In this document: one piece after another, positions 835 to 63,971 of the stretch | How positions within the stretch are numbered: position 1 is the first letter of the stretch | How the letters are laid out: each line of letters opens with the position of its first letter | DNA from: Shigella phage Sf25 | DNA: 64,000 nucleotides | Reading direction: 5' to 3' (one strand) | Sequence record: MF327009 | Program-made: the position numbers and the translations under genes | Notes under the pieces: model-generated | Seen by the model: only the letters and a program-made list of their open reading frames with translations | Told to the model about the DNA's origin: nothing | The model's database searches: none

Positions 835-1036
835 TTTTCACCTTTTTATTGATATGTCTTTTTCTATAGACAACTTTTTCTCGAGTTTCAAATTTATTCT
901 TAGCAGTCATAGCTCGAGCCCATAATACAGCCACTTCTTTCGCCTGTAAGTTTAATTCACGAGCAATTTCAATGAATGACTTTCCAGACTCATGAAGAGT
1001 AAACACCACAACCTCAGTTCTCATAATCAATCTCAT
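821..1036 (-). CDS. hypothetical small protein (71 aa); its 5' end and upstream leader lie inside a 202-bp tandem duplication
   Basis: ORF track; a second copy of its first ~38 codons plus leader is present at 1125-1238. Confidence 0.5.
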   Translation of the reverse strand: MRLIMRTEVVVFTLHESGKSFIEIARELNLQAKEVAVLWARAMTAKNKFETREKVVYRKRHINKKVKNGTV

Positions 1037-1326
1037 GTTATCGAGTTGGTGCCATTATATACATCATTTTCTGATTGTGTTTTGTGTGCTTTCAAAATGA
1101 AGAAAGGGGCCGAAGCCCCTTATGTAATACAGCCACTTCTTTCGCCTGTAAGTTTAATTCACGAGCAATTTCAATGAATGACTTTCCAGACTCATGAAGA
1201 GTAAACACCACAACCTCAGTTCTCATAATCAATCTCATGTTATCGAGTTGGTGCCATTATATACATCATTTTCTGATTGTGTTTTGTGTGCTTTCAAAAT
1301 GAAGAAAGGGGCCGAAGCCCCTTATG
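923..1326. repeat. exact tandem duplication, 2 x 202 bp (923-1124 and 1125-1326)
   Basis: The two units read identically, including the hairpin ggggccgaagcccc and the start codon of the 71-aa ORF. Confidence 0.9.
1090..1119 (-). terminator. rho-independent terminator hairpin (GGGGC-CGAA-GCCCC plus U-run) downstream of hoc; duplicated at 1292-1321
   Basis: GC stem with GNRA-type loop followed on the minus strand by a T-rich run. Confidence 0.55.
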
Positions 1327-13400: not shown

Positions 13401-13454
13401 TCCTCATGTTATGTCAGTAAGATTACTATAACACAACACGAGGGACTTGTAAAC
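13401..13454 (-). promoter_or_regulatory. early-promoter cassette (-35 GTTTAC, -10 TATAGT, RBS); 54 bp identical to 29491-29544
   Basis: Minus-strand GTTTACaag(18 nt)TATAGT then GAGGA; exact copy upstream of alc. Confidence 0.5.
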
Positions 13455-15511
13455 TACATCTTGAACTTTTTAGACATTCCGTTGATGTTAACCAAAGAAG
13501 CCAAGATTTGAGAAACTTCGTTTTCCTCTTCTTTTGATTCTTCTACGAGGAATTGATTAAACCCAGCCATTGGACGAACTTCGCCAGTTTCCATTAGATG
13601 ATCGCCATCATATACCGATTCTTCTAATTGTTCAGAAGGAGGAACGATTGTGCCTTCGATTAGATACTTGTTATAAGCAGTTTCTTTCATCATGTACGTG
13701 CTTACTTTATTAATCTTCAACAAAATTCCACGCGGTAGAATAACTTCAGCTTCTGATGGAAATCCTGATAAATGACCTGGAACGATAACTTTGATTCGCT
13801 CAGCTCCTTTAATTACCATACCCACGCTAGTTTCAGCATCTTCATTAGCATATGTAGAATGACTACCCATATGCATCAAATCTTCTGCATCAATGGAACC
13901 TTCTCCTTCACCAGAAAATACTGCGCCGGAATCATCTAGAGCCATATAGTTTTTACCATGCTCACCGAAGATATTTGGTTTAAGCGATGTTGATACGAAG
14001 TTCTTGAAATAGAACATTTTATTTTCAATGTTATGACGCAAAGTTTTAAAGGTAACTTCTTGCCCACGATAAAGAGTAGTTCCTGGAGGAAGAACTGAAC
14101 CTTTAGCAAATGCAGAATCCAACGTCTCGATGTGTTTAATAGCTCGTTCCATATATTCTTCACGGGTAGAATCAGGTTTACCTAAAAGGAACGAGTTCAT
14201 TTCAACATATGAATCTGCACAATAATCTTCAATTACATCAGACTCAGCCTGAGTTAATCCTTTTGGAGTTACTTCAGTGCTTGCGTATTCATATGCCTGA
14301 GCGGCAGATTCATTAATCAATTTATAAATGCCATTCATGACAAATTGAATAATAGCTGTCTTTTCATCTGGTGTAGCTTTAGAACCTTTAACTAAATCAT
14401 TGATAATTTTCTTAATAACATCAAAGCTATTAGAAATATTAATGTCAGCAAGATCGCTTAAAATTTTATCAGTTTTATAATCAAAGAATTCTTTATTCTT
14501 TAAATATTCTTGAGAACCTTGATATGTTATATCGCTCTGCAACTTGATAGATGGATCACGTAAACGTGCATGGGCTAATGCAATATGATTTCGGAAACTT
14601 TCTAGTTCATAATCGTTAGATTTAAAACGAGAAGCACTTCTCATACCACCGATAGCTCCTTTGCTAAAGTTTGAACCAATCTGAATAACGCCAGAGTTCA
14701 TCGGACCTTCTGCTTTATATACCGGAACTTTAGATTCAAACTCTTGATATTTCTTAGCAGCGAAGCTATCACCCTGAAGTGAAGCATCAACAGTAGAATA
14801 TTGAGCTTGTGCTGCTAATCGACGACTAATTTTAGTTTTCTGAATAACAGCTTGATCCGTGCGCTTATCATTTTCTAAAGCAATAGAAGCAGCAACAGCG
14901 ACAGCTTTAGGAACAGCATTACCTGTTTTAACGTCTACATAAACATCACCAACCTTTGATTCAACTTTTGTGAATAACTCAGTTGAAATAGGAGGTACAC
15001 CTGGAATGTCTTCTAAATTGGCATTTTTACGGTAAACCATAATATATGCATATTTCTTATCATAGTCCCAGATTTCCTTTAAAAGAACATATCGACCTGC
15101 TCCTTTAGTACGTACTAAACGGTCAGCAATAACTTGCATTTGACGAGCAGCGCCATTTGTTTTACTCTTTAGTACGCGGAATAAGCATGCATCAATTTTA
15201 TACTGTTTCATTGTTTGAAGAGCAGTATCAAAAACAGCATTAATGACGCCAATTGGATTTCCACCCAAGTTTTTAAGCTTGACTAACGATAATTTCTCGT
15301 TGACACCTATCATTACGATATGCATCATTTTGTCGCCTGGCTTAACGTTTTTATTCGTATCACCGCCAGAGGTGTATGTACAAAATCTAAATCCAGGAAG
15401 CACGCTTTCTTCACCGGCTTGAATAGCAAAAATTTGTGGTATTTTATGCTTAGGATTTAAGTTAACAACCGGCGCCGAAGCGCCGTCAAATAATTCTGTA
15501 ATAAGTTCCAT
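13454..15511 (-). CDS. Alt-like ADP-ribosyltransferase paralog (685 aa)
   Basis: N-terminus MELITELFDGASAPVVNLNPKHKIPQIF parallels the adjacent Alt; diverged over the whole length, so not a recent duplication. Confidence 0.7.
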   Translation of the reverse strand: MELITELFDGASAPVVNLNPKHKIPQIFAIQAGEESVLPGFRFCTYTSGGDTNKNVKPGDKMMHIVMIGVNEKLSLVKLKNLGGNPIGVINAVFDTALQTMKQYKIDACLFRVLKSKTNGAARQMQVIADRLVRTKGAGRYVLLKEIWDYDKKYAYIMVYRKNANLEDIPGVPPISTELFTKVESKVGDVYVDVKTGNAVPKAVAVAASIALENDKRTDQAVIQKTKISRRLAAQAQYSTVDASLQGDSFAAKKYQEFESKVPVYKAEGPMNSGVIQIGSNFSKGAIGGMRSASRFKSNDYELESFRNHIALAHARLRDPSIKLQSDITYQGSQEYLKNKEFFDYKTDKILSDLADINISNSFDVIKKIINDLVKGSKATPDEKTAIIQFVMNGIYKLINESAAQAYEYASTEVTPKGLTQAESDVIEDYCADSYVEMNSFLLGKPDSTREEYMERAIKHIETLDSAFAKGSVLPPGTTLYRGQEVTFKTLRHNIENKMFYFKNFVSTSLKPNIFGEHGKNYMALDDSGAVFSGEGEGSIDAEDLMHMGSHSTYANEDAETSVGMVIKGAERIKVIVPGHLSGFPSEAEVILPRGILLKINKVSTYMMKETAYNKYLIEGTIVPPSEQLEESVYDGDHLMETGEVRPMAGFNQFLVEESKEEENEVSQILASLVNINGMSKKFKM

Positions 15512-15514
15512 GAT

Positions 15515-17608
15515 TTATCCTTGAACGAACTTGTAAGGCATGTTTGTAATATCTATGCAAGACGCAATAATTCCAAGAGATGATTCTACTTTCTGTTTAA
15601 CGTTTGATGAAACAAATGATGCAAAGTCAACTCTGTCTTCTATTTCAATATCACCTGTCATTGCAACTACTTCGCCGGTTTCCATTAAATGGTCTCCATC
15701 ATAGATTACCGATTCGGTGAGCTCTTCCGTGGTCATAACTTCAGCTTGAATGAGTTTTGTATTATTAGACGTGGTTCCGTCATTATTAGAAGCATCAGTT
15801 ATTTTATTAACTTTGACCATCAATCCGCGCGGTAGAATAACTTCAGCTTCTGTTGCTATTCCGAGACTTCCTGGATATACAACATTAACTTTATGAGCTC
15901 CATCAATTGCCCATCCTATTTGAACTTTAACGTATTCAGGATTTTCTTTATACGCTCTTATTTCGTTTGGATTAATAGTTATTCCTTCTTCATTTTTATC
16001 AACTGTTAATTCATTGCGAGCTTCTGGTTCTAAAAGACCAATACCAGCATGTGTAATTCCAAAACGTCCAAAAATGATAGGAGTTAAAGAAGTAGATACA
16101 AAATTTCTGAAATAGAACACTTTATTTTTAACTAGTGCTTCGTATATAGGAGCAGTCATACTTTGAGCACGATAAACTGTGATGCCTTCCGGTATGCGGT
16201 CACCATTTTCAAAAGCTGAATCTAAGTTATTTATAGCAGATTCAATTTCTTTTTCACTCATTACATCATATCGTTCTGGATTGTAACGACCTAAAAGAAG
16301 ATTATTGATGTCAGTATATCCTGAACCGCAATATTCTCTAATGCCACGCTTTTGTGATGGAGTATATTTAGAACCATCGCGGGCAATAGTAATATCAATC
16401 ATTGGACCAGCACCAATTCCAGAAAAACTGTAAATCATTCGTTTGAGGAATTTAGTTTTTGCTGCGTTCCAGGAATTTTTAGTTATTTCTTCCCAGACTT
16501 CATCTGGTTGTCCTTTACGATTTTTATTATGATTAGCAAGCCATTTATCTTTATAATCTTCAAAGAATTGATTTACAGCTGCTGCGTATTTCTCTAAACA
16601 TTTTATTGAAGTAGTTGGTTCATTTTTAATTGCATTAAAAATTACTTCTTTAATTTTTTCTGAAACTTCACCGACTTGACTCATTGGAAAGAATTTATAA
16701 TCATAGTGAAGTTCATCTGCCGTTCCTTCGGCAATAATTTTTGCTGCCTTAGTTTTAGAAGCTAATGAATTAATTCCAAGCTTCATTTCTTCTGCTTCGG
16801 GAATTAAAGGTGCAGTAGTTGGTTTATTAAAATTAGCTGCTGTAGATTCATACTTCTGGAATAATTCACTTTCAAATCTAGAAGATTCCAATGACTGACT
16901 TTGTGCAATTGCTCTACGGGAAATTTTAACTTTAACGATTACAGCTTGGTCAGAACGTTTATCGTTTTCTTGTGCAATAGATGCTGCAATTGCCTCATTT
17001 TTAGTTACTTGAGCTCCAGTATCTTTATTGATATAAACATCGCCAACTTTCGATTCAACTTTAGTAAAGAGCTCGGTACTAATTTCCGGAACTCCTGGAA
17101 TGTCTTCTAGCGATACATTTTTGCGATGTATAAGAATATATGCATACTTTTTATCATAATCCCAGAGTTCCTTAAGAAGGACGTATCTGCCACCTGAACG
17201 ACTACGGATAAGTCTATCAGCAATAACTTGAATTTGTCGAGCTTGACCAGCGGTTTTAGACTTAAGAATACGAAGCATACAAGCATCAATTTTATACTGA
17301 CGCATTGTTTGCATTGCAACAGTAAAAACTGAATTGATATAATTAATTGGGCTTGGACCAAGACCTTTTAATTTAGCAATTGAACCTTTAGCAGTTAATG
17401 TAAAAGGAACAATATGCATCATTTTATCGCCCATTTTTAAATCGCGATTAGTATCACCTCCAGATGTATAGGTACATAAACGAAAGCCTGGCTGTTCAAT
17501 TGCATCATCAACGTGAACTGAAAAAATTTGCGGTATTTTCTTCTTTGGATTTAAGTTTGTAATCGGAAGAGTAGTATCTTCGTCAAATAATTCTGTAATG
17601 AGTTCCAT
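15515..17608 (-). CDS. alt: Alt ADP-ribosyltransferase (packaged, injected with the DNA)
   Basis: ORF begins (M)MELITELFDEDTTLPITNLNPKKKIPQIF, matching recalled T4 Alt N-terminus; sits next to gene 30. Confidence 0.8.
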   Translation of the reverse strand: MELITELFDEDTTLPITNLNPKKKIPQIFSVHVDDAIEQPGFRLCTYTSGGDTNRDLKMGDKMMHIVPFTLTAKGSIAKLKGLGPSPINYINSVFTVAMQTMRQYKIDACMLRILKSKTAGQARQIQVIADRLIRSRSGGRYVLLKELWDYDKKYAYILIHRKNVSLEDIPGVPEISTELFTKVESKVGDVYINKDTGAQVTKNEAIAASIAQENDKRSDQAVIVKVKISRRAIAQSQSLESSRFESELFQKYESTAANFNKPTTAPLIPEAEEMKLGINSLASKTKAAKIIAEGTADELHYDYKFFPMSQVGEVSEKIKEVIFNAIKNEPTTSIKCLEKYAAAVNQFFEDYKDKWLANHNKNRKGQPDEVWEEITKNSWNAAKTKFLKRMIYSFSGIGAGPMIDITIARDGSKYTPSQKRGIREYCGSGYTDINNLLLGRYNPERYDVMSEKEIESAINNLDSAFENGDRIPEGITVYRAQSMTAPIYEALVKNKVFYFRNFVSTSLTPIIFGRFGITHAGIGLLEPEARNELTVDKNEEGITINPNEIRAYKENPEYVKVQIGWAIDGAHKVNVVYPGSLGIATEAEVILPRGLMVKVNKITDASNNDGTTSNNTKLIQAEVMTTEELTESVIYDGDHLMETGEVVAMTGDIEIEDRVDFASFVSSNVKQKVESSLGIIASCIDITNMPYKFVQG

Positions 17609-17644
17609 CATATCCTCTCTAGTGTTTATTCTATTTATAAAATT

Positions 17645-22465: not shown

Positions 22466-22807
22466 TTATGCTTTCTGCTTACCAAAACGAGAAGCATCAT
22501 CTCGAAGAACCGCACGTGCTCGGCGCATGATCTTCTCAACAGTTTGATTGATACGAGAGTTCGACCCACGCTTGTAGCCAGCGCGTTTAGAATCACCAAC
22601 TTTCTTTTCAACTGCTTTCTTTGCTTTAGCTTGTTTTTTCTGCTTACCAAAACGAGAAGCATCATCTCGAAGAACCGCACGTGCTCGGCGCATGATCTTC
22701 TCAACAGTTTGATTGATACGAGAGTTCGACCCACGCTTGTAGCCAGCGCGTTTAGAATCACCAACTTTCTTTTCAACTGCTTTCTTTGCTTTAGCTTGTT
22801 TTGCCAT
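22466..22807 (-). CDS. small highly basic protein, expanded from about 58 to 113 aa by an in-frame 165-bp tandem duplication
   Basis: Translation MAKQAKAKKAVEKKVGDSKRAGYKRGSNSRINQTVEKIMRRARAVLRDDASRF with the 55-aa block repeated exactly. Confidence 0.55.
   Translation of the reverse strand: MAKQAKAKKAVEKKVGDSKRAGYKRGSNSRINQTVEKIMRRARAVLRDDASRFGKQKKQAKAKKAVEKKVGDSKRAGYKRGSNSRINQTVEKIMRRARAVLRDDASRFGKQKA
22472..22801. repeat. exact tandem duplication, 2 x 165 bp (22472-22636 and 22637-22801), in-frame
   Basis: Identical nucleotide units; boundary ambiguous by 1 bp. Confidence 0.9.
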
Positions 22808-28196: not shown

Positions 28197-28639
28197 TTAT
28201 CCTCTTTTAACTCTTGACGATAATAACATATCATAGTTTTCTGATCATGTACATATCGTTTTACATCATTAAGCCAAATGCGAAATTCCTGGGAATCTTC
28301 AAATGGCATACCGACCCAAGCTTTACCATCAATAACTTTAACTTGCCAGGATAGTTTAGCTTCATCGTATGACTTTATTTGTACTGGCCAATTAGGATGA
28401 ACTGTTTCTTTCTTTACTTCTAGAGGCTTTGTCGAACAACCAACTAGAAGACCAATAGATAATATTACCCAAGCTTTACCATCAATAACTTTAACTTGCC
28501 AGGATAGTTTAGCTTCATCGTATGACTTTATTTGTACTGGCCAATTAGGATGAACTGTTTCTTTCTTTACTTCTAGAGGCTTTGTCGAACAACCAACTAG
28601 AAGACCAATAGATAATATTACTGCTGATAGTTTAATCAT
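28187..28639 (-). CDS. putative lipoprotein, expanded from about 99 to 150 aa by an in-frame 153-bp tandem duplication
   Basis: Signal/lipobox-like LSIGLLVGC-S; the 51-aa block ILSIGLLVGCSTKPLEVKK...DGKAWV is repeated exactly, giving two lipobox copies. Confidence 0.5.
   Translation of the reverse strand: MIKLSAVILSIGLLVGCSTKPLEVKKETVHPNWPVQIKSYDEAKLSWQVKVIDGKAWVILSIGLLVGCSTKPLEVKKETVHPNWPVQIKSYDEAKLSWQVKVIDGKAWVGMPFEDSQEFRIWLNDVKRYVHDQKTMICYYRQELKEDKCK
28314..28619. repeat. exact tandem duplication, 2 x 153 bp (28314-28466 and 28467-28619), in-frame
   Basis: Identical nucleotide units. Confidence 0.9.
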
Positions 28640-29490: not shown

Positions 29491-29544
29491 TCCTCATGTT
29501 ATGTCAGTAAGATTACTATAACACAACACGAGGGACTTGTAAAC
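29491..29544 (-). promoter_or_regulatory. early-promoter cassette upstream of alc; 54 bp identical to 13401-13454
   Basis: Same -35/-10/RBS cassette as at 13401-13454. Confidence 0.5.
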
Positions 29545-32383: not shown

Positions 32384-34897
32384 TCATAATTTACAGGATG
32401 AACAATCTTCAGCTTTTGGAGTTTCTATTTCATAATCATCAGTACCAGAACCGTCACGGGTATTATGATAATAGAAATTTTTTCCGCCAAAATACCAAAA
32501 ATATAAAAGGTCATCAATCATTATTGACATTGGAACCTTTCCTTTTGGAAAAATCTGCGGGTCATAATATGTATTAGCTGAAGCTGATTGACATACCCAT
32601 TTCAGCATAATAGCTACTTGCGTAAGATAAGGTTTATTGCCTTTCTTAGCTAATTTCCACGTATAATCATAGAGGTCTATGTTATGCTCAATATTGGGCA
32701 CGACTTGATTAAAGGAACCCTCTTTTGATTCTTTAACAGAGACTGGTCCACGTGGAGGCTCGATACCGTTTGTACTGTTAGAAACTTGGGAAGATGACTC
32801 ACATGGCATAAGTGCTGATAATGTGCTATTACGGATGCCAAAGAGCTTAAGGTCTTCCCGCAGCGACGACCAGTCACAAACGTATTTTGGAGCTGCGATT
32901 TGGTCAATCTTTTTATTGTACCAGTCGATAGGTAATTCGCCTCGAGACCAACGAGTGTCTGAATAATATTCGCAAGGTCCTTTTTCTTTGGCGAGCTTAA
33001 TGGATGCTTTAATGAGTCCATACTGTAATCTCTCAAATAGTTCATGTGTTAAATCGTTAGCATCTTCATAAGAAGCAAAATTACTTGCCAGCCAAGCTGC
33101 ATAGTTAGTAACACCTACACCAAGATTTCGACGCTTTTTAGCTTTTTCTGCTTCAGGAACTGGATATCCTTGGTAATCCAAAAGATTATCAAGAGCACGA
33201 ACTTGGACTTCTGCCAATTCATTAATTTTATCTTGGTCTTGCCAATCAAAGTTATCTAACACAAATGCAGATAACGTACACAATCCAATTTCAGCATCAG
33301 GACTATTCACATCATTTGTTGGAATAGCAATTTCACAGCACAAGTTGCTCTGACGAATAGGTGCCTTTTCACGAATAAACGGAGTATAGTTATTCGTATT
33401 ATCTATGAACTGTACATAAATCCTTGCTGTTCCTGAGCGTTCAGTCATGAGCAATTCAAATAGTTCACGGGCTTTAATACGCTTTTTACGAATATTAGGG
33501 TCTTTTTCTGCTGCTTCGTATAATTCACGGAAACGGTCTTGGTCTTTAAAATAAGAATAATAAAGCTCGCCACCCATTTCATGCGGACTGAACAAAGTAA
33601 TGTAATCGTTCTTTCCGAATCGTTCCATCATCAAATCATTCAGCTGAACACCATAATCCATATGACGGATACGGTTTTCTTCTACACCTTTGTTATTTTT
33701 CAAAACGAGAAGATTTTCAACTTCCAAATGCCAAATAGGATAATAAGCAGTAGCAGCGCCGCCACGAATTCCACCCTGTGAGCATGATTTAACAGCAGTC
33801 TGAAAATGTTTCCAAAAAGGAATAACACCAGTATGGCGTACTTCACCTGTGCCAATCTTAGAACCTTCGGCACGAATCATACCAACGTTAATACCAATTC
33901 CATAATCCATATGACGGATACGGTTTTCTTCTACACCTTTGTTATTTTTCAAAACGAGAAGATTTTCAACTTCCAAATGCCAAATAGGATAATAAGCAGT
34001 AGCAGCGCCGCCACGAATTCCACCCTGTGAGCATGATTTAACAGCAGTCTGAAAATGTTTCCAAAAAGGAATAACACCAGTATGGCGTACTTCACCTGTG
34101 CCAATCTTAGAACCTTCGGCACGAATCATACCAACGTTAATACCAATTCCAGCGCGTTTGGAGATATATTCAACAATTGAAGCAGAAGCCTTATTGATAG
34201 ACTTTAATGAATCACCTGCTTCAATAACAACGCATGAACTAAACTGCCGAGTTGGAGTACGGCAACCAGCCATAATAGGAGTTGGCAGTGAAATCTGTCG
34301 AGTAGATACTGCTTCATAAAAACGGATAACGTGTTTTAATCTATCAACAGGTTCATCTTGATGCAATGCCATTCCAATAGTCATAAATGCAAACTGTGGA
34401 GTTTCATAAATTTGACCAGTGGTTTTATCTTTAACTAGATATTTTTCTTTTAATTGCATCGCCCCGGAATAAGTAAATTCCATATCCCGCTCGTGCTTAA
34501 TTTTTGATTCTAAAAATGTAATTTCTTCGGCAGAATATTTTGACAACAATTCAGGGTCATATTTACCTTCATTTACACAGTAAGAAATGTGGTCAATAAA
34601 TGAACGTGGTTCATACTGCCCATAAACATGCTTACGAAGAGCGAACATTAAACAGCGTGCAGCTACATATTGATAATCAGGCTCTTCAACTGAAATAGAA
34701 TTCGCAGCAGCCTTAATTACAATGGTTTGAATGTCATCAGTTGTCATTCCATCACGGAGATATGATTTAATATTTTCATATAATTCATAAGGATCTACAG
34801 ATGTTCCTTCAGCTGCCCAAGATAAAACTTTAATAATTTTTTGCGGGTCAAAGCTCTGAGAAACACCACTACTTTTGATAACATTAATTAATTGCAT
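32384..34897 (-). CDS. nrdA: ribonucleotide reductase large subunit carrying an in-frame 249-bp tandem duplication (837 aa versus 754 aa expected)
   Basis: MQLINVIKSSGVSQSFDPQKI...; 83-aa block GIGINVGMIRAEGSKIG...NRIRHMDY repeated exactly. Confidence 0.9.
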   Translation of the reverse strand: MQLINVIKSSGVSQSFDPQKIIKVLSWAAEGTSVDPYELYENIKSYLRDGMTTDDIQTIVIKAAANSISVEEPDYQYVAARCLMFALRKHVYGQYEPRSFIDHISYCVNEGKYDPELLSKYSAEEITFLESKIKHERDMEFTYSGAMQLKEKYLVKDKTTGQIYETPQFAFMTIGMALHQDEPVDRLKHVIRFYEAVSTRQISLPTPIMAGCRTPTRQFSSCVVIEAGDSLKSINKASASIVEYISKRAGIGINVGMIRAEGSKIGTGEVRHTGVIPFWKHFQTAVKSCSQGGIRGGAATAYYPIWHLEVENLLVLKNNKGVEENRIRHMDYGIGINVGMIRAEGSKIGTGEVRHTGVIPFWKHFQTAVKSCSQGGIRGGAATAYYPIWHLEVENLLVLKNNKGVEENRIRHMDYGVQLNDLMMERFGKNDYITLFSPHEMGGELYYSYFKDQDRFRELYEAAEKDPNIRKKRIKARELFELLMTERSGTARIYVQFIDNTNNYTPFIREKAPIRQSNLCCEIAIPTNDVNSPDAEIGLCTLSAFVLDNFDWQDQDKINELAEVQVRALDNLLDYQGYPVPEAEKAKKRRNLGVGVTNYAAWLASNFASYEDANDLTHELFERLQYGLIKASIKLAKEKGPCEYYSDTRWSRGELPIDWYNKKIDQIAAPKYVCDWSSLREDLKLFGIRNSTLSALMPCESSSQVSNSTNGIEPPRGPVSVKESKEGSFNQVVPNIEHNIDLYDYTWKLAKKGNKPYLTQVAIMLKWVCQSASANTYYDPQIFPKGKVPMSIMIDDLLYFWYFGGKNFYYHNTRDGSGTDDYEIETPKAEDCSSCKL
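33651..34148. repeat. exact tandem duplication, 2 x 249 bp (33651-33899 and 33900-34148), in-frame within nrdA
   Basis: Identical nucleotide units; boundary ambiguous by 3 bp. Confidence 0.9.
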
Positions 34898-38440: not shown

Positions 38441-38887
38441 CTACTTTTTGAAAGTTTTTCGCAAAAGTTCAATGATTTCATCTACATTGTTTTCGTCAAC
38501 AATGCAGTGAATTTTTGTTACGCCAGAAACCTTGTCTATGACTTCATCTACATTGTTTTCGTCAACAATGCAGTGAATTTTTGTTACGCCAGAAACCTTG
38601 TCTTTGACTTCATCTTCTTCAGAAGTCGGTTCTTTATACTCACGAAAACAATGAAATTCATCTTCGCAAATTTCTAAAAGTCTATCTTTGAGGTAAAAAT
38701 GCTTTCCATTTGCGCATTCAATGTGTTTTACTGCTTTATATCCATTAGCGACGGAAACTTCTTTAACTTCAAACCATCCGCCATTATCTCGAATAGCTTT
38801 AACGATTGATGAATTAGAACGTGGGCTATAATTAATAAATGTATCAATAAGTCTTGGAACAAGTTCATACTTTTTGCCAATATACAT
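38441..38887 (-). CDS. hypothetical protein (148 aa) with an internal 22-aa tandem repeat
   Basis: ORF track; ...VKDKVSGVTKIHCIVDENNVDE VIDKVSGVTKIHCIVDENNVDE.... Confidence 0.45.
   Translation of the reverse strand: MYIGKKYELVPRLIDTFINYSPRSNSSIVKAIRDNGGWFEVKEVSVANGYKAVKHIECANGKHFYLKDRLLEICEDEFHCFREYKEPTSEEDEVKDKVSGVTKIHCIVDENNVDEVIDKVSGVTKIHCIVDENNVDEIIELLRKTFKK
38472..38615. repeat. near-exact tandem repeat, 66-bp unit, about 2.2 copies, 2 mismatches
   Basis: Position i matches i+66 across 38472-38549 except at 38476 and 38538. Confidence 0.8.
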
Positions 38888-40311: not shown

Positions 40312-40809
40312 TTAATACTTGCAAGATTTCACAGTTTCAATAAAAACTTTTTTAGCTTCCTGTGAATCAATATTTAAAATTTTTCTATAAGCCTTTAACT
40401 TTATAGAATAATTATTCCAAACTAAATTATCAGTTTGTTGATCATGTTTATCAATTATATTTAAAAACGAATCAAGCAAGATAAACGTCTCAAACGAAAT
40501 TATGTTCGATTGCAGAAGTTTAAAAATATAACTTGACTGAACTTTTGGATTATACTCAAAAATTTCTTTAAAAGCAGAAACTTCAACTTTTTTACTAAAA
40601 TAATAAATGTTGCGAATATCTTCTTCAAACTTAAATTTAATTTGCTTTAAGCGTCCGATATATTCACGATAAAACACAAGTGCATCAGCGTCAGAGATGT
40701 CACCAATCCAAGCATCTTGGTTAGCAACCAAATTGCTTATAAAGATTAAAGCAAGTTCCTTTAATTTATATTTTTCTGATAACTTCTGGAAAAAATACTT
40801 ATCCCTTCG
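40312..40809 (-). CDS. 59: gp59 helicase loader, C-terminal 165 residues only (about residues 53-217), fused in-frame to gene 33
   Basis: RRDKYFFQKLSEKYKLKELALIFISNLVANQDAW...ETVKSCKY matches recalled T4 gp59; the N-terminal about 52 residues are absent. Confidence 0.75.
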   Translation of the reverse strand, partial: RRDKYFFQKLSEKYKLKELALIFISNLVANQDAWIGDISDADALVFYREYIGRLKQIKFKFEEDIRNIYYFSKKVEVSAFKEIFEYNPKVQSSYIFKLLQSNIISFETFILLDSFLNIIDKHDQQTDNLVWNNYSIKLKAYRKILNIDSQEAKKVFIETVKSCKY

Positions 40810-41127
40810 ATTAGTTTTTTCACAACGAACAACAGAAGGACGTAAAAGATTTTCGTCGATAGCTTCTGACTGAATTTTTTCAATTATACCCGAAGGAATA
40901 AATTTAGCAAATTGAGTTTCAGGAATAGAATTTTCTTCTAAGAACGCTGTTGTAGCTTCAAGATAACTCATTCCAAACTCTTCTACCATTTTTTCAATAA
41001 TAAATCCATTTTCTTGGCGGTCAAGAAGCTTTGCTATTTCATCCTTTTCTTTCTTAATTGAAAGTTCTTTTTCTGAAAGACCGGTCTCATCGACCGGACG
41101 AATATCATTTAGAGAAAACTGTGTCAT
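40810..41127 (-). CDS. 33: gp33 late-transcription co-activator, residues 1-106, lacking its last about 6 codons and stop, fused in-frame to gene 59
   Basis: MTQFSLNDIRPVDETGLSEKELSIKKEKDEIAKLLDRQENGFII...VVRCEKTN continues directly into the gp59 sequence. Confidence 0.75.
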
Positions 41128-41374
41128 AAAGTTCAACTACCTCTTCAGTTTCAGCTTCAAACACATCACGGTTATCTTTATGATACAAAGCTAACAGACG
41201 ATTAAACATCTTACCATCAACGCCAAGTTCATCTTTGGCACGAATTCGAATATCTTTAATCAATTCATTATAACCAGAAATTTTCAGTTTATGATCAGAT
41301 GCTTCTTTAATAAATTTAGCTAAGTCTTCGCCATGGATAGCTTCATCAAATTCAACCATTTCTTTTTTAGCCAT
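41105..41374 (-). CDS. dsbA: DsbA double-stranded DNA-binding protein
   Basis: 89-aa ORF; position between rnh and 33 as in T4. Confidence 0.75.
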   Translation of the reverse strand: MAKKEMVEFDEAIHGEDLAKFIKEASDHKLKISGYNELIKDIRIRAKDELGVDGKMFNRLLALYHKDNRDVFEAETEEVVELYDTVFSK

Positions 41375-48134: not shown

Positions 48135-51100
48135 ATGGCTACTTTAAAACAAATACAATTTAAAAGAAGCAAAACTGCAGGTCAACGTCCTGCTGCTTCA
48201 GTATTAGCCGAAGGTGAATTGGCTATAAACTTAAAAGACCGTACTCTTTTTACTAAAGATGACTCGGGAAATATTATTGATTTAAGCATTTCTGCCGGTG
48301 GTAACATTAGTGGAAATATCACTCAAAATGGTGATTATTTACAAAACGGCACGTATAATCTTAATGGAAATCAGTTTGTTTATGCAGGAAAGTATATTGA
48401 ATTCTTGCCAAAAACTGCTGGAAATGGTGCTTGGGCAAATCAGCACACAAATAAAGCTCCAATTTTCACCGATTTGAGTTCAACTACTTCAACTTCTGAA
48501 TATCATCCGCTAATTAAACAACGTTATAAAGATGGAACGTTTTCATTAGGGACTTTAGTTTCTGAAGGCTCAATGAAGATACACTATATCGATGAAACTG
48601 GCACTTCAAAATATTGGACTTTCCGACGTGATGGTGGTTTTGTTGTTGATAGTGGTAGTTTAACTGTTACTGCTGGAAACATATCTGCTTCAGGCAATAT
48701 TAATTCGGCATCAGGGGTTGTTTCAGCTCCTCAAATTAATACAAAAACCATTGTTTTAGATACAAAAGCATTTGGACAATATGATTCGCAGTCATTAGTT
48801 CAGTATGTTTATCCTGGCACTGGCGAAACAAACGGTATAAACTATCTTCGTAAAGTTCGCGCAAAATCAGGTGGTACAATTTATCATGAAATAGCTTCAG
48901 CTCAAAGTGGAAAAAGCGATGAAATTTCGTGGTGGACTGGAAATACAGCCGTTAATAAACAAATGGGTCTTCGTAATGATGGTGCAATGGTATTACGTCG
49001 TTCACTTGCTATTGGCACAATTACTACAGATGAAAACGTAAATAACTATGGATCTGCTGGAGCAATGGGAGAAAAATACATTGTTCTTGGAGATGCGTCA
49101 ACTGGACTAGCTTATAAAAAGACAGGAGTTTATGACTTAGTTGGTAGTGGTTTATCTGTTGCTTCTATCACTCCCGACAGTTTTCGTAGTACCCGTAAAG
49201 CAATTTTTGGACGTTCTGAAGACCAAGGCGGTACATGGCTTCTTCCTGGTCAAAACGCTGCTCTTCTTTCAGTTCGTACAGATATTGATCAAAATAATAA
49301 CGGTGATGGTCAAACTCATATTGGATATAATAGTAACAGCAAGTTTTATCATTATTTTAGAGGCAGAGGCCGAATGGCTGTTGGAATGGCTGAAGGTCTT
49401 ATTGTTGAGCCTGGAATTTTAGATATTAAAACTGGTTCAAATACTGTTTCTATTAGAGCTGATGGCGGAATTTCATCTACTCAGCGTCTTTCATTGCAGA
49501 ATGGTATATTTTTATCTTCTGACGGAAATAACAACGGTATATCGTTTAAAGCTTCTAGCAGTATAGATGGAACTAAAACTCTTAATTGGGATGCTGGTAC
49601 TCGTGCAGGTCAAAACAAAAATACAGTAATTTTAAAAGCATGGGGAAATTCATTTAATACAAGTGGTGGAACTGATAGACATACTGTATTTGAAGTTTCT
49701 GATTCGCAAGGATACTACTTTTATGCTCAACGTACTACCCCTGCATCCGGTCAAACAGTAGGTCCTATTAATTTTAAATTTAATGGTACTGTAGAAACCG
49801 GTCATATCAATGGATTAGGTAATATTACTTTATCTGGGGCAGTTATAGCAGATTCTGCTAATATTAAAGGACCGCTAAAAATATCTAATGCTAATACAGC
49901 TGATGCTTTTAGAATATGGAACGCTGAATATGGAGCCATTTTCCGTCGTTCAGAAACATCATTGCATATTATTCCTACACTTAAAGATGCAGGGGAAAAT
50001 GGTGGAATAAGTAATCTTCGCCCATTAAGTATTGATCTTTCAAACGGATTTGTGCAAATGCATCATTCTCTTTCTGTGGGGAATACAGTAAGAACGAATG
50101 GATTGTTTGCTGTGGATACTTCAGCTGCTCTTGTTGCAATTAACAGATGTTCCTATTGTGAAACAAAGATACGTTCAAGGGAATAGCACCTATTCATTAG
50201 GTACTTTAATTAATGGTGGTGATTTCCGTTTACATTACCATGAAGGCGGTGACAGTTCTTCAACAGGTGCAGTTATAAAAGATATTTCCTGGGAATTTAA
50301 ACGTAATGGTGATTTCTATTCGCCAGGTCGTTTACGTACAGGAAATATCTATATTGGAACTGATGGTAATATCACGGGTGGTTCTGGTAACTTTGCTAAC
50401 TTGAATACAACTTTAAACCGTAAAGTTAATTCTGGTTTTATTACTTATGGAGCAACTGCAGGTTGGTACAAGTTTGCAACAGTAACAATGCCTCAAGCTA
50501 CATCAACCGTTTCAATTACAGTCACTGGCGGAAATGGATTTAATTCTGGATCATTTAATCAGTGTGCAATTTCTGAAATTGTTCTTCGTACAGGAAACAA
50601 TAATCCTCTGGTGATACATATGACATTTATGTTAATATGGGAACATATGCTAATCAGTTGATATTTAACTATAGTTCTGTTGATAATGCCACAGTTCAAA
50701 TTATTGGCGCATTCAGTTCAGCTCAAAATCCTGTTGATGCATTGCCAGAAACATATGTTAAAGGTCAGGTAGCAGATGTATTGACTAACTTAGTTGATTC
50801 TGGAAAAACGAAGCGTTTTGTTGCTGAATCTGAAATAGCTATTAATAATCAAACTGGATTACGTATTACGAGTAATGGTGATAAATCTGGTTCAAATTCA
50901 GTATTATTCAGAAATGATGGATCAGCGTTTTATATTCTTTTAACAGATAAAAACGCAGCAGATGGAAATACGACTGCCACAGAAGGAGATTGGAATGGTA
51001 AACGTCCTTTCCAAATTAATATGACTTCTGGTGAAGTAACATTCGGAAATAATATTAATATTTCTGGAAACGGAAGCATTACTTGGACAAAAGCCGGAGC

Positions 51101-51800: not shown

Positions 51801-52498
51801 ATGGCAATTGTAGGTGTTCCTGGCTGGATTGGTGAATCTGCCGTGAATGAAACAGGACAGCGTTGGATGGATGCTGCAATGAGAGCAGTCCGTGTTTCAG
51901 TTCCCGGTTGGATGAGCTCAATGGCCGGACAATCTAAAGAAGTATATTATAGCATTGGTGCTAGTAATTCTTATAATAAAGATACATTAATAAACTGAAT
52001 GCATACGTGACACTTAATATCAATTCAGGCGTGCATGTTTGGGGCCGTGGCGGGAATGGCGGAAATAACTCTGCCGGTGGAGCAGGAGGAACTGCAATAA
52101 ATAATGGAATTGGAACTAGATTGCGTATTAACAACAATGGTGTTATCGCAGGAGGCGGTGGCGGCGGTGGAGGCGGATATTATTCTCCTTTTTCACAAAT
52201 GAAATTGACTTTTGGCGGTGGCGGCGGTCGTCCATTTGGTGCTGCTGGCGGGTCTGCTAATATGGAACAGGGCGCTACTGCTGGTACTATTTCTGCACCT
52301 GGTAAAGGGTCTGTCAATGGTATCTATAATGGCGGGAATGGCGGTGATGCTGGTGCCGCAGGTGGTAAATGTAATATTCGTGGGCAAGGATCAGAATATA
52401 ACGGCGGTGCGGCCGGTAAAGCTGTTACTGGTAATGCTCCAACTTGGACTAAGGTTGGTACAATATATGGCCCTCTGATATTCTATTTGGTGTTCTAG
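51801..52498 (+). CDS. 38: gp38 receptor-recognising adhesin (T2-type, glycine-rich islands); split by a frameshift near 51980-51996
   Basis: ORF 51801-51998 (MAIVGVPGWIGESAVNETGQRWM...) and ORF 52007-52498 in another frame with GGGGGGGGG islands; the second frame is open back to 51980. Confidence 0.75.
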
Positions 52499-57620: not shown

Positions 57621-57680
57621 CTAAAGCTTGAAATTATTACGATAGAACTGCATCACATGTTCGTTATGGAAATTACTCAT
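57621..57680 (-). CDS. stp: Stp-like peptide (19 aa; T4 Stp is 26 aa)
   Basis: Manual translation [19 protein letters not shown]; first 16 residues match recalled T4 Stp. Confidence 0.4.
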   Translation of the reverse strand: MSNFHNEHVMQFYRNNFKL

Positions 57681-58529: not shown

Positions 58530-58718
58530 TTATTTTACACCATTCCAAATTGTTTCAACTACAGATTTTAAGCCATTTTGATGAATGTCCATTCCGACTA
58601 CCGCCATCAAATAGATTCCAACTACGTTTAACATATCAATCATTAAAACGATTGGGAATATACTCAAAACTACTAGTATTATAACTACATTCCATATAGC
58701 TTTAATAATCTTTTTCAT
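58530..58718 (-). CDS. small membrane protein (about 62 aa from MKKIIKAIWNVVIIL)
   Basis: ORF track 58530-58853, trimmed to the internal Met preceded by GGAGG and an early promoter at 58746-58776. Confidence 0.4.
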   Translation of the reverse strand: MKKIIKAIWNVVIILVVLSIFPIVLMIDMLNVVGIYLMAVVGMDIHQNGLKSVVETIWNGVK

Positions 58719-60380: not shown

Positions 60381-61319
60381 TTATTTAAATTGCTCAGTAA
60401 CGTCTTCAACTACTTCGTATTGGCAAGTACGCATTTTAGCATCGTTGTAATCAATCGGAATTGATACTACATCACGCGGATGTACTTTAACTTTTACAAC
60501 TCGGCTAGTTGAACTACCAAAGTGACGAATATAAGATTTAGAACACACATGCAGACCACGAGAACAAGTTTGTGTATCATCGTCGTTCACACGAGTACGT
60601 GGCATTTTAACTACTTTACCAGGACTGTTATCAAAGGTATTTGAGTGACAATCAAAGTAATTGCTACGAACTACTTTCCAAGCATAGAAGTAACCATCTT
60701 CTGTAATTTCAATATCGTTTGCTACCAAGAAATCAAAGAGTCGAGATACCGCTTTTTGGCTTGGGTTTTCCAGCAGATTTTCCAAGAACGGAAAATAAAA
60801 TTCAAAGTTTTCACCTTTTTCCATCGAATCGAGAATACGATCAACTAAACCAGACCGTAATTCGATATTTTGATAGAACAAGCTTCCGCCTTCAATTCGA
60901 ACATCGCCGGAAATATATTTTTCAACAGCGCGACGAACATTAATTTTTTGTGCAGCTTCTTCCAGCTTATCCGCTACAAGCAGATTAAGAATTTCCTGGA
61001 AGTTTGAATGAGTATTAGGTGTTGCGTTATAAGTTACACCGTCGACAGTAATTGAAATGAATTTTTTAGATGCATTCCAAATAATGTCAGATTTAGCAAC
61101 TGGAGCAATAACTGCATCGCTATTAACTTTAACTGTAATATCACCGCTAATAGTAACTTTAGGGCGTTTAGCTTCTTCAGCATTTTTCAAAACACGACGG
61201 ATTGTATCAACCGATACATCCTTCCAATAAGCCAATTCCTGTTGGGTGTAATTACCGCTTGAATACAGTTTAACAATTTCAGCTTGTTCGTTTTTGGTCA
61301 GGCATTTAATATTGTACAT
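60381..61319 (-). CDS. rIIB: rIIB membrane-associated protein
   Basis: 312-aa ORF MYNIKCLTKNEQAEIVKLYSSGNYTQQELAYWKDVS; matches recalled T4 rIIB. Confidence 0.9.
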   Translation of the reverse strand: MYNIKCLTKNEQAEIVKLYSSGNYTQQELAYWKDVSVDTIRRVLKNAEEAKRPKVTISGDITVKVNSDAVIAPVAKSDIIWNASKKFISITVDGVTYNATPNTHSNFQEILNLLVADKLEEAAQKINVRRAVEKYISGDVRIEGGSLFYQNIELRSGLVDRILDSMEKGENFEFYFPFLENLLENPSQKAVSRLFDFLVANDIEITEDGYFYAWKVVRSNYFDCHSNTFDNSPGKVVKMPRTRVNDDDTQTCSRGLHVCSKSYIRHFGSSTSRVVKVKVHPRDVVSIPIDYNDAKMRTCQYEVVEDVTEQFK

Positions 61320-61330
61320 AATTTTCCTTA

Positions 61331-63757
61331 TTAGGCCGCAAGGGCCTTCATAGTTTTAGCGATTTGAGAAACTTCATCATCACTTAAAGAGTTGCGATAA
61401 CCGATGAAGTCGGAAACAATACGGAATTTCTTGGTAAACTCAGCAACCATTTTATCACTGTTTTTTGAAGCATTATTTGATAATACATCAAAAAGATTAG
61501 TTACTGTCCAGATGTCATGACCGATGGTACCTTTTCCACCGTTGAAATATACGCCCCGCAATGAACTAACTATATTAGCGAGTCGTGTATATTCTTCAGA
61601 AACTTCATCTGTACTGAAGTACTTCATCATAAAATCTAGTTCAGGATACTTGATAATTTTATCAATATATCGTTGAGCTGAACTTGAATAACCTACGTAC
61701 TTATCATAATCTACATCATCAAAAGCATCTACATATAAATCACGCAGAGTTTCAAAAATACATTGGCACTGACCGAGTTCTTTTACCTTTTTCTGCAAAA
61801 GCGGACGAATAACATAAAATTCATTAATGCCAATAAGATTAGCCATACGAATCAAAATATTCATAGATGGATGACAAAGAGATGTAGTACCATCCATAGA
61901 GAAAATATCAGAACGATGCATATACGCTACATAACCAGTAATTTCATCTGCTTCTGATGTGAGCGTAAACAGTTCCTCTTTTTCCCATCGCCCATCTTTA
62001 ATTTCAAACTTAAATGCTGTAGCAGCTTTAGGACGAGGAGCTTTACTTTTAACTACCTTTGGAATATAGCTTTTAACTAAAGCTTCAATTTCTGACAAAT
62101 AATGAATGTTAACTTCATCACTTTCAAACATCGCCATAATATCAGGAAGTAAATCAATCTGCGATTCTACTTCTGGATTAATAAACAGAAGACGCTCATT
62201 GTGATGAATATTCAAAGTGTTATTAAATTCACTATCATCTAACGCATGTGCTAATCCACGAACAATATTAACACGATTTTTAATATTATCAATAACGATA
62301 TTAATTTTTGTTGTATTAATACCAAACAGACGATAACTTGATGCAACGGCTGAAGTTTCATGACTTTGCTTAATGCGTTTCAGTCGAGGGTCAAGATTTA
62401 CTTCATACACAACTCCTGCATTGCATAACTTACTGTCAGGTTCAAACATGCTCTGCATCTTTTTATATGACAGATTTTTAGTCGTGAATTTGACTGAATT
62501 ACTAATCATATAATCTCGAGCAGAATATCCCATCTTCATCAATTCACGATATGTGTGACGAGGAGATGTAGATTCTTTAAATCGTTTTACATCTTCATTG
62601 AATGCCTTCTCACTAAGCTCTTTAACACGCTCAATAATATTTTTACGAGTACGATCATCTAGTGAAAGAGCTTCGCGTGATGGAGCAATATCAAGTGAAC
62701 CCATTGGAAACTTAATGTAATTCACTTCATTGCGAATGCTTAGCCAGTTACGGTCTCTAATAACACCATCGATAGGATAAACAATACCGCCATAGATAGC
62801 ATATAATCCACCACGATCAGGCCAGTATCTTTCTGGATTTACACCATAATAATCATCAAAATCAGGAAAATAATCAATTTCAATAATATTTTTACGAGTA
62901 CGATCATCTAGTGAAAGAGCTTCGCGTGATGGAGCAATATCAAGTGAACCCATTGGAAACTTAATGTAATTCACTTCATTGCGAATGCTTAGCCAGTTAC
63001 GGTCTCTAATAACACCATCGATAGGATAAACAATACCGCCATAGATAGCATATAATCCACCACGATCAGGCCAGTATCTTTCTGGATTTACACCATAATA
63101 ATCATCAAAATCAGGAAAATAATCAATTTCGCGGTCAAGACCATTAATGATAGCCAAATCTTTGAACGGTCGCATGATATAAGAAACTTCATAAGCAAAG
63201 TTTCTAAAGTCTTTTTCTTCAACTGGAACTACGATTTCAATACCAGTTTTATCATCTGGACCCATTTCTTTTACGAATGTAGGTTTAATCTGTGGGCCAT
63301 CACCATCCATGTAAGCTACATAACCACGAATTTCACCTTTATGATACGAAGTAATACTAAACGTATCAGTATAACTAAACGGAGATTTAGAACCTAAACC
63401 AAATCCGCCAATAAAGTCATTAGATTCAGCCTTAGATGAACTGAAGTATGAATTATACAGCCCAGGAGAATTATCATCACCCTGAATATCAAAATCACTC
63501 ATACCCGGACCAAAATCTCGACAAACAAATCGTGGATCTAATCGTCCTGGAACTTGAATGATAAATTTTTCAGGATTTCCATTAAGTGCATGAGCATCAA
63601 TCATGTTAGTAATCAATTCACGGACTACTGCGCGAATCTTGTTTGTATACAAATCAGATGACAGAATTTTAAATACTTTAGGATTTGCTGCGATGCTAAA
63701 TGCTTTTGATTTAGAACCATTGCCAAGAATTGTTTCTTTTTCAGTGGTGATAATCAT
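61331..63757 (-). CDS. rIIA: rIIA protein carrying an in-frame 249-bp tandem duplication (808 aa versus 725 aa expected)
   Basis: [20 protein letters not shown]...; 83-aa block [24 protein letters not shown]...TRKNIIE repeated exactly. Confidence 0.9.
62631..63128. repeat. exact tandem duplication, 2 x 249 bp (62631-62879 and 62880-63128), in-frame within rIIA
   Basis: Identical nucleotide units. Confidence 0.9.
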
Positions 63758-63767
63758 AATTTCCTCA

Positions 63768-63971
63768 TTAATTCATATTACGCTTAATAACTTCAGCAAC
63801 TTCTAGTAGTTCATCTTTAGTTGCAGTGTCGGATTGAATTTTATCTCTAATATCTTTAAAGCGGTTTTTAAATTCTTCGGCTTCTCCCATATCGAAAAAG
63901 CGTTGAATGATTCTATATTCTCGATGAACTGCTTTATCAAAAAGTTCTAAATTTACTTTATATGATTTCAT
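63768..63971 (-). CDS. hypothetical protein (67 aa), rIIA.1-like
   Basis: ORF track; immediately upstream of rIIA. Confidence 0.45.

Follow-up and report, generated by a model that had tools for sequence, protein, structure and literature searches.

Does the exact 249-nt tandem duplication in the rIIA gene analysed here belong to a phage lineage, or did it enter at the level of the sequence? The window, i.e. the whole 64-kb stretch of DNA that was analysed, is a T4-like (Tequatrovirus) segment that is colinear from gene 24.2/hoc through rIIA.1. Its backbone is a natural mosaic in which stretches of 300-600 nt are identical to different public phages, and it diverges from its nearest relatives by 1-3%. 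Artificial point-mutation noise was considered for this backbone and rejected because of these identical tracts.

The rIIA repeat and its relatives

The gene lies between rIIB (60381..61319) and rIIA.1 (63768..63971), an order that recurs in six public contigs, and it was assigned to rIIA by the conserved arrangement gene 39 / rIIA.1 / rIIA / rIIB, which holds here. The features of the locus are as follows:

61331..63757, minus strand: rIIA ORF, 808 aa as written, uninterrupted
62631..62879, minus strand: 3′-proximal copy of the duplication, residues 293-375
62880..63128, minus strand: 5′-proximal copy of the duplication, residues 210-292

An earlier note on this DNA had described an exact in-frame 249-bp duplication that lengthens rIIA by 83 residues, to 808 aa instead of 725 aa, and both statements hold. 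A self-match of the two units (62631-62879 and 62880-63128) returns 100% identity, with s[i]=s[i+249] for i=62631..62881, i.e. 249 nt plus a 2-nt ambiguity of the boundary at the novel junction 62879|62880. The reading frame stays open throughout, and the repeated block of 83 residues (IDYFPDF...RKNIIE) occupies whole codons at residues 210-292 and again at residues 293-375. An exact repeat of 249 nt cannot be produced by chance.

Comparison with wild-type rIIA, which the note had proposed as a check, points the same way. The intact gene encodes 725 aa in the relatives examined (five of six, as the gene of L002 is split into two ORFs), a length that the window rIIA matches only once one 249-nt copy is removed; this removal also yields a gapless 2751-nt alignment to all six. 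At the level of identity, the window gene is an ordinary member of its family (97-98.6% identical to the annotated rIIA of GiZh, Sf22, Kha5h and ~490 others).

The insertion is placed directly after the sole recognisable domain signal of the protein, a GHKL-ATPase-like match to Pfam PF13589 at residues 43-143 that remains below threshold (22.3 bits versus a cut-off of 25), and a PDB sequence search with rIIA matched no solved structure. Taken at face value, an rII-minus protein and phenotype would be the probable result of 83 additional residues at this point, behind the ATPase-like N-terminal region. A real direct repeat of 249 nt would, moreover, be readily lost by T4 homologous recombination, making it unstable in a highly recombinogenic mode of replication.

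Whether the repeat is carried by other phages was addressed at several levels. Full-length matches to the rIIA region come from approximately 497 phage records; among the matches listed, the span in the record is 249 nt shorter than in the window. Likewise, a 161-nt query centred on the junction aligned as two separate pieces in every record among the matches listed. The 808-aa protein has no entry in an index of 153 billion genes, and neither the exact 40-nt junction nor a SNP-tolerant 34-nt version of it was found in IMG/VR, JGI metagenome contigs or GTDB genome contigs; as a positive control, the wild-type rIIA boundary was recovered from five IMG/VR contigs. Look-ups of the exact gp34 and Frd.2 proteins of the window were likewise negative. 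The neighbouring rIIB is common to many phages, none of which carries the rIIA duplication.

These data bear directly on the idea that a domain of rIIA was duplicated during evolution, giving rise to a longer natural variant of the protein. Such an origin would agree with an in-frame repeat of exactly 83 codons, none of them split. Yet the two copies differ by zero nt in a gene that differs by 1.4-3% from its relatives, and neither the longer protein nor the junction is present in the gene index and contig collections searched, while the intact genes examined encode 725 aa and the full-length matches listed are shorter by precisely one unit. Because of the missing divergence between the copies, together with the fact that none of the relatives listed carries the duplication, this explanation can be regarded as effectively refuted.

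Companion duplications and deletions in the window

The rIIA repeat is one of several. Tandem Repeats Finder (TRF) detected six 2.0-copy tandem repeats in the 64 kb, all with 100% identity between the copies and with units of 202, 165, 153, 249, 178 and 249 nt, whereas 235 kb of DNA from related phages, searched with the same settings, contained zero tandem repeats with a period of at least 40. The genes concerned were assigned via synteny with KRT47, GiZh and TadeuszReichstein:

923..1326, minus strand: 2 x 202 nt, spacer between hoc and 24.3 (with terminator hairpin) plus 5′ part of 24.3; 0 nt of homology at the junction
22472..22801 (TRF to 22802), minus strand: 2 x 165 nt, gene 30.9, in frame
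28314..28619 (TRF to 28621), minus strand: 2 x 153 nt, pseT.2 (o-spanin), in frame, 99 to 150 aa
33651..34148 (TRF to 34151), minus strand: 2 x 249 nt, nrdA, in frame, 754 to 837 aa
34916..35271 (TRF to 35272), minus strand: 2 x 178 nt, nrdA.1, frameshift near the 3′ end
62631..63128 (TRF to 63130), minus strand: 2 x 249 nt, rIIA, in frame

With each duplication collapsed, the proteins regain their canonical lengths, and the frameshift in nrdA.1 costs only the last ~9 codons. None of the six pairs shows any divergence between its copies. Natural repeats of the window, such as the promoter families, the gp34 motifs and the alt paralogues, are 60-97% identical, with the exception of a 54-nt module. 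This exact dispersed repeat (13401 / 29491) is a promoter module common to relatives at both sites; it was considered as a further edit and rejected because GiZh carries both copies.

At the six duplication junctions, homologies of 0, 1, 2, 3, 1 and 2 nt add up to 9 nt, compared to 4.7 +/- 2.6 nt for sites placed at random in the sequence after collapsing (P=0.08). Approximately 18% of random cuts yield at least the 2 nt seen at the rIIA junction. All six duplications fall into non-essential genes or spacers, for which P is about 0.075 under random placement and 0.017 given that 6/15 of all events described here hit essential genes, and four of the five duplications within genes are in frame (binomial P about 0.045).

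A seventh private duplication illustrates what a natural event of this kind looks like in the same DNA. In frd.2, a 66-nt unit is repeated in frame at 38469-38600, with copies that differ at 2 positions, and in single-copy relatives each end of the unit is marked by an imperfect direct repeat of ~12 nt (TGAYTTCATCT), inside which the junction is located. This is the natural anatomy of slipped mispairing, and the six exact duplications are unlike it. The frd.2 and rIIA events have in common that a short two-copy repeat lies in frame in a small or non-essential gene and is private to the window; however, the rIIA repeat has neither the end repeats nor the mismatches between copies.

The window has also lost DNA. 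A census of breakpoints against nine, later ten, related loci uncovered nine clean private deletions of 69-173 nt, for which no strand is assigned:

2396/2397: 133 nt; start and first ~21 codons of hoc, spacer and last ~20 codons of inh lost
23431/23432: 93 nt; final 10 codons of gene 31 (an essential gene) and spacer upstream of rIII lost; junction homology 0 nt
40809/40810: 173 nt; gp33 C-terminal TLDFLL and gp59 residues 1-52 lost; junction homology 0 nt
50146/50147: 173 nt; gp37 (distal tail fibre) frameshifted, leaving the gene in three ORFs
50601..50607: ~69 nt; gp37
51997..52002: ~103 nt; gp38
52469/52470: 72 nt; end of gp38, RBS, start codon (ATG) and first ~9 codons of holin t lost
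57630..57633: 134 nt; ac gene (7/7 relatives in the census)
58620..58630: ~130 nt; ndd.2a region (6/7 relatives in the census)

In the alignments, these deletions appear as blunt cuts, with a homology of 0 nt at both junctions measured (those in gene 31 and between genes 33 and 59). Database searches found none of the nine among the relatives listed, and neither inversions nor deleted pieces re-inserted elsewhere were found in the window.

Several of the genes concerned, namely 31, 33, 37, 38 and t, are indispensable to T4. The cut at 40809/40810 creates a 33-59 fusion ORF (40312..41136) that joins gp33(1-106) to gp59(53-217) and lacks TLDFLL, which in gp33 is the clamp-binding epitope (PMC2988020). 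As written, the window genome cannot make gp33, gp37 or the holin in the way its relatives do. With these lesions in the gp33 tail, in the frame of gp37 and at the start codon of holin t, a phage with the sequence as written would presumably form no plaques.

Together, the six duplications and nine deletions amount to 15 events of 69-249 nt each in 64 kb, with 1196 nt gained and about 1079 nt lost. The earlier note had already pointed to an nrdA duplication of the same unit length as that in rIIA and had called this coincidence unexpected for independent natural events. The nrdA repeat is indeed present at 33651-34148, and the suspicion proved well founded, given six duplications and nine blunt deletions that are all private to the window, with 173 nt as a second length that occurs twice. 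None of the fifteen was found among the matches listed from ~500 public relatives. Essential genes are damaged by 6/15 events, all of them deletions, compared to ~35% expected by chance, a fraction estimated for the window from T4 gene assignments. There is no frame bias, as 7-8 of the 15 lengths are divisible by 3 (P about 0.09-0.2), and the spacing of the events is compatible with uniform placement (P=0.05-0.12). It should be kept in mind for this selection-blind placement that the duplications, if viewed on their own, all avoid essential genes (P=0.017-0.075).

The DNA on either side of the events is 99-100% identical to public phages across hundreds of bases, and the breakpoints are not consistently places where another phage becomes the closest relative; near rIIA, for instance, identity to GiZh rises gradually, starting inside the repeat unit. 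Mis-joined contigs from different strains were rejected as a source of the breakpoints on the grounds that such a consistent switch is missing.

Origin of the events

T4-type phages do form duplications and deletions via illegitimate recombination (PMC9391042), and the earlier note had placed the rIIA repeat in the tradition of the classic tandem duplications of the T4 rII region. The window shares some properties with real T4 REARRANGEMENTS, namely a head-to-tail direct repeat at the rII locus of a T-even genome and, as in evolved T4, gains of DNA accompanied by losses elsewhere. In the evolved T4 described by Srikant et al. (2022; PMC9391042), segmental amplifications cover entire genes (dmd-tifA, for instance) and are bounded by unique microhomologies of typically 6-10 bp, and the compensating deletions reported there measure 0.7-6 kb, are flanked by microhomology and affect none of 62 essential genes. 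For the rII duplications of T4, the same source cites Kumagai et al. (1993) and names homologies of 2-10 bp as the sites of recombination (PMC9391042).

Judged by these examples, the events in the window are of a different kind. Real amplifications span genes and usually arise under selection for dosage or complementation, whereas the 249-nt rIIA unit spans no gene and lies wholly within one. Similarly, real events are flanked by microhomology and spare essential genes, whereas homology at the junctions in the window does not clearly exceed chance, with the 2 nt at rIIA at the lower end of the 2-10 bp range, and genes 33, 37 and t are destroyed by its deletions (69-173 nt). A genuine T4 duplication is expected in a viable genome, which this one presumably is not. 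The analogy drawn in the earlier note is therefore unsupported, for a 249-nt unit in one gene, with 2 nt of homology and with companion lesions in essential genes, does not resemble those duplications; as a whole, the interpretation of the note is partly supported.

A better match is provided by assembly or scaffolding artefacts and by simulated structural variants, which share with the window copies free of mismatches, blunt junctions, a large number of similarly sized events, placement that is blind to function and repeated lengths. The copies in the window are identical and private, events of one size class are numerous and exceed the background of related phages, and they are positioned irrespective of frame and essentiality. 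What does not fit this comparison is that the closest relative remains the same, by and large, on both sides of a breakpoint. In summary, the events exist, they are private, their junctions show chance-level homology where measured, and they are placed regardless of gene function.

We therefore infer, with a probability of roughly 0.88, that the rIIA duplication is a non-biological event at the level of the sequence and belongs to a homogeneous set superimposed on a natural Tequatrovirus backbone. The decisive result is that of the companion deletions: the duplication is one of at least fifteen blunt events that would jointly be lethal to the phage, and for this reason it is judged almost certainly to be an artefact or edit. 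Two routes could lead to such a set. The changes may be deliberate or simulated structural edits made in silico, or they may stem from a faulty assembly or consensus, in which, for example, untrimmed contig overlaps would be retained as duplications and gaps closed to nothing would become deletions. Some observations run counter to a non-biological origin: the duplications alone look tolerable, they share slightly more homology at their junctions than the null predicts, phages of the T4 type do undergo such rearrangements, and the breakpoints give no positive indication that contigs of different strains were mis-joined.

This modest evidence leaves a small probability for a genuine, very recent duplication. 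The rIIA repeat could have arisen at the 2-nt microhomology by illegitimate recombination or template switching and have been tolerated on hosts without a lambda prophage, with the other changes being unrelated artefacts. The repeat is in frame and leaves the ORF intact, rIIA is described as non-essential (PMC9391042), the rII duplications cited in that source include homologies as short as the one found here, and none of the six duplications touches an essential gene. What makes this scenario quite improbable is the company that the rIIA repeat keeps, as its exactness, bluntness and size class, and even its length of 249 nt, are shared with the other fourteen private events, several of which are incompatible with viability. 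The 2 nt are what chance provides, the duplication is absent from ~500 relatives (among the matches listed) as well as from the public collections searched, and dividing one homogeneous set of events into a real and an artefactual part is unparsimonious. Natural events filtered by selection had been another candidate, which was rejected because nine private deletions emerged, six of them in essential genes.

The lethal lesions pose no difficulty if the events occurred in real but defective DNA molecules that never formed a viable lineage, as might be the case for a single long read, a non-clonal consensus or chimeras from multiple displacement amplification (MDA). Events would then be expected to be blunt and blind to selection, and gains and losses alike are smaller than a read. 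Artefacts of MDA are, however, dominated by inverted chimeras, and the lack of any inversion in the window therefore counts against this source. The near-perfect identity of the flanks over hundreds of bases further means that the noise of small indels and substitutions is absent, and fifteen rearrangements per 64-kb molecule lie far above known rates. We consider this explanation to be no more probable than that of a genuine recent duplication. Less probable still is a real T4-like population that underwent a burst of blunt duplications and deletions of 70-250 nt, caused for example by faulty end joining or faulty processing of the lagging strand, and that was captured before selection had removed the lethal variants.

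Consequences for the use of the window

For a non-biological origin, which remains by far the most probable reading, the practical value of the rIIA duplication is that of a quality flag on the sequence of the window. The longer proteins encoded here, i.e. rIIA (808 aa), NrdA (837 aa) and PseT.2 (150 aa), are unsuitable for mining, and so are the gp33-gp59 fusion and the truncated hoc, t and gp37, because all of them result from the same set of non-biological changes. Any other finding in the window calls for the same caution if a duplication, a fusion or a truncation is its basis.

As to the biology of these phages, a real rIIA duplication would represent a minor mutant allele of rII and no new system. 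If, on the other hand, the burst of duplications and deletions were true, it would constitute a mutational mode previously undescribed in T-even phages.

A tandem duplication in frd.2

Besides the six exact duplications (two-copy tandem repeats of 100% identity), the window carries a seventh private tandem duplication, i.e. one not found in the public records compared.

38469-38600, within the minus-strand ORF 38441..38887: frd.2 tandem duplication, 2 x 66 nt

The repeat is in frame and lengthens the product from 126 to 148 aa, and its copies are 97% identical, differing at two positions. In relatives with a single copy, the unit has imperfect direct repeats of ~12 nt (TGAYTTCATCT) at both ends, and the junction of the duplication lies within this repeat. 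The duplication was found neither among the best-matching phage records listed nor in IMG/VR, and the 148-aa Frd.2 protein was not found in the gene index. The anatomy of this duplication is natural, and genuine slipped mispairing in the parent lineage probably produced it.

Mosaicism, repeats and paralogues in the backbone

A comparison of 61300-63900, around rIIA, with L002 and L009 revealed two 600-nt stretches without mismatches inside one gene: 61300-61900 matches the public phage L002, and 63100-63700 matches a different one, GiZh. Such fine-scale mosaicism is typical of T-even recombination and shows that artificial point-mutation noise was not added to the backbone. The N-terminus of rIIA itself (61331..63757) has a weak match, at residues 43-143, to PF13589, a family of GHKL ATPases (E=1.4e-4; 22.3 bits, under the 25-bit cut-off), and a PDB sequence search with the whole protein found no match.

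Two further features concern repeated sequence:

13401-13454 and 29491-29544: dispersed direct repeat of 54 nt, with exact copies that follow alt.-2 and rnlA on their downstream side
13454..15511 and 15515..17611, minus strand: pair of alt-type ADP-ribosyltransferase paralogues in tandem (685 and 698 aa)

The 54-nt repeat, which looks like an early-promoter and RBS module, is natural because GiZh carries it at both sites, with 0 and 1 mismatches. The alt paralogues have 64-nt and 31-nt stretches in common at 80-94% identity and are about 68% identical across ~700 nt. Since relatives share this arrangement (Alt and Alt2 in TadeuszReichstein), the pair is an old natural gene duplication.

Placement and lengths of the private events

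The six exact duplications are all confined to spacers or non-essential genes; by contrast, essential genes are damaged by six of the nine private deletions. With 6/15 events doing so overall, finding 0/6 among the duplications has P=0.017, a contrast that may reflect chance or different placement rules for each event type.

Exact length ties occur among the deletions (173 nt, at 50146/50147 and 40809/40810) and the duplications (249 nt, at 33651-34148 and 62631-63128), 249 nt being the longest duplication length too. The chance of a tie within either event set is about 14% and 29%, so neither is rare; taken together, the two hint that the lengths came from a generator with discrete or capped values.

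One 173-nt deletion gives rise to a fusion ORF:

40312..41136, minus strand: gp33(1-106) + gp59(53-217), in frame

This ORF risks being misread as a novel fusion protein.
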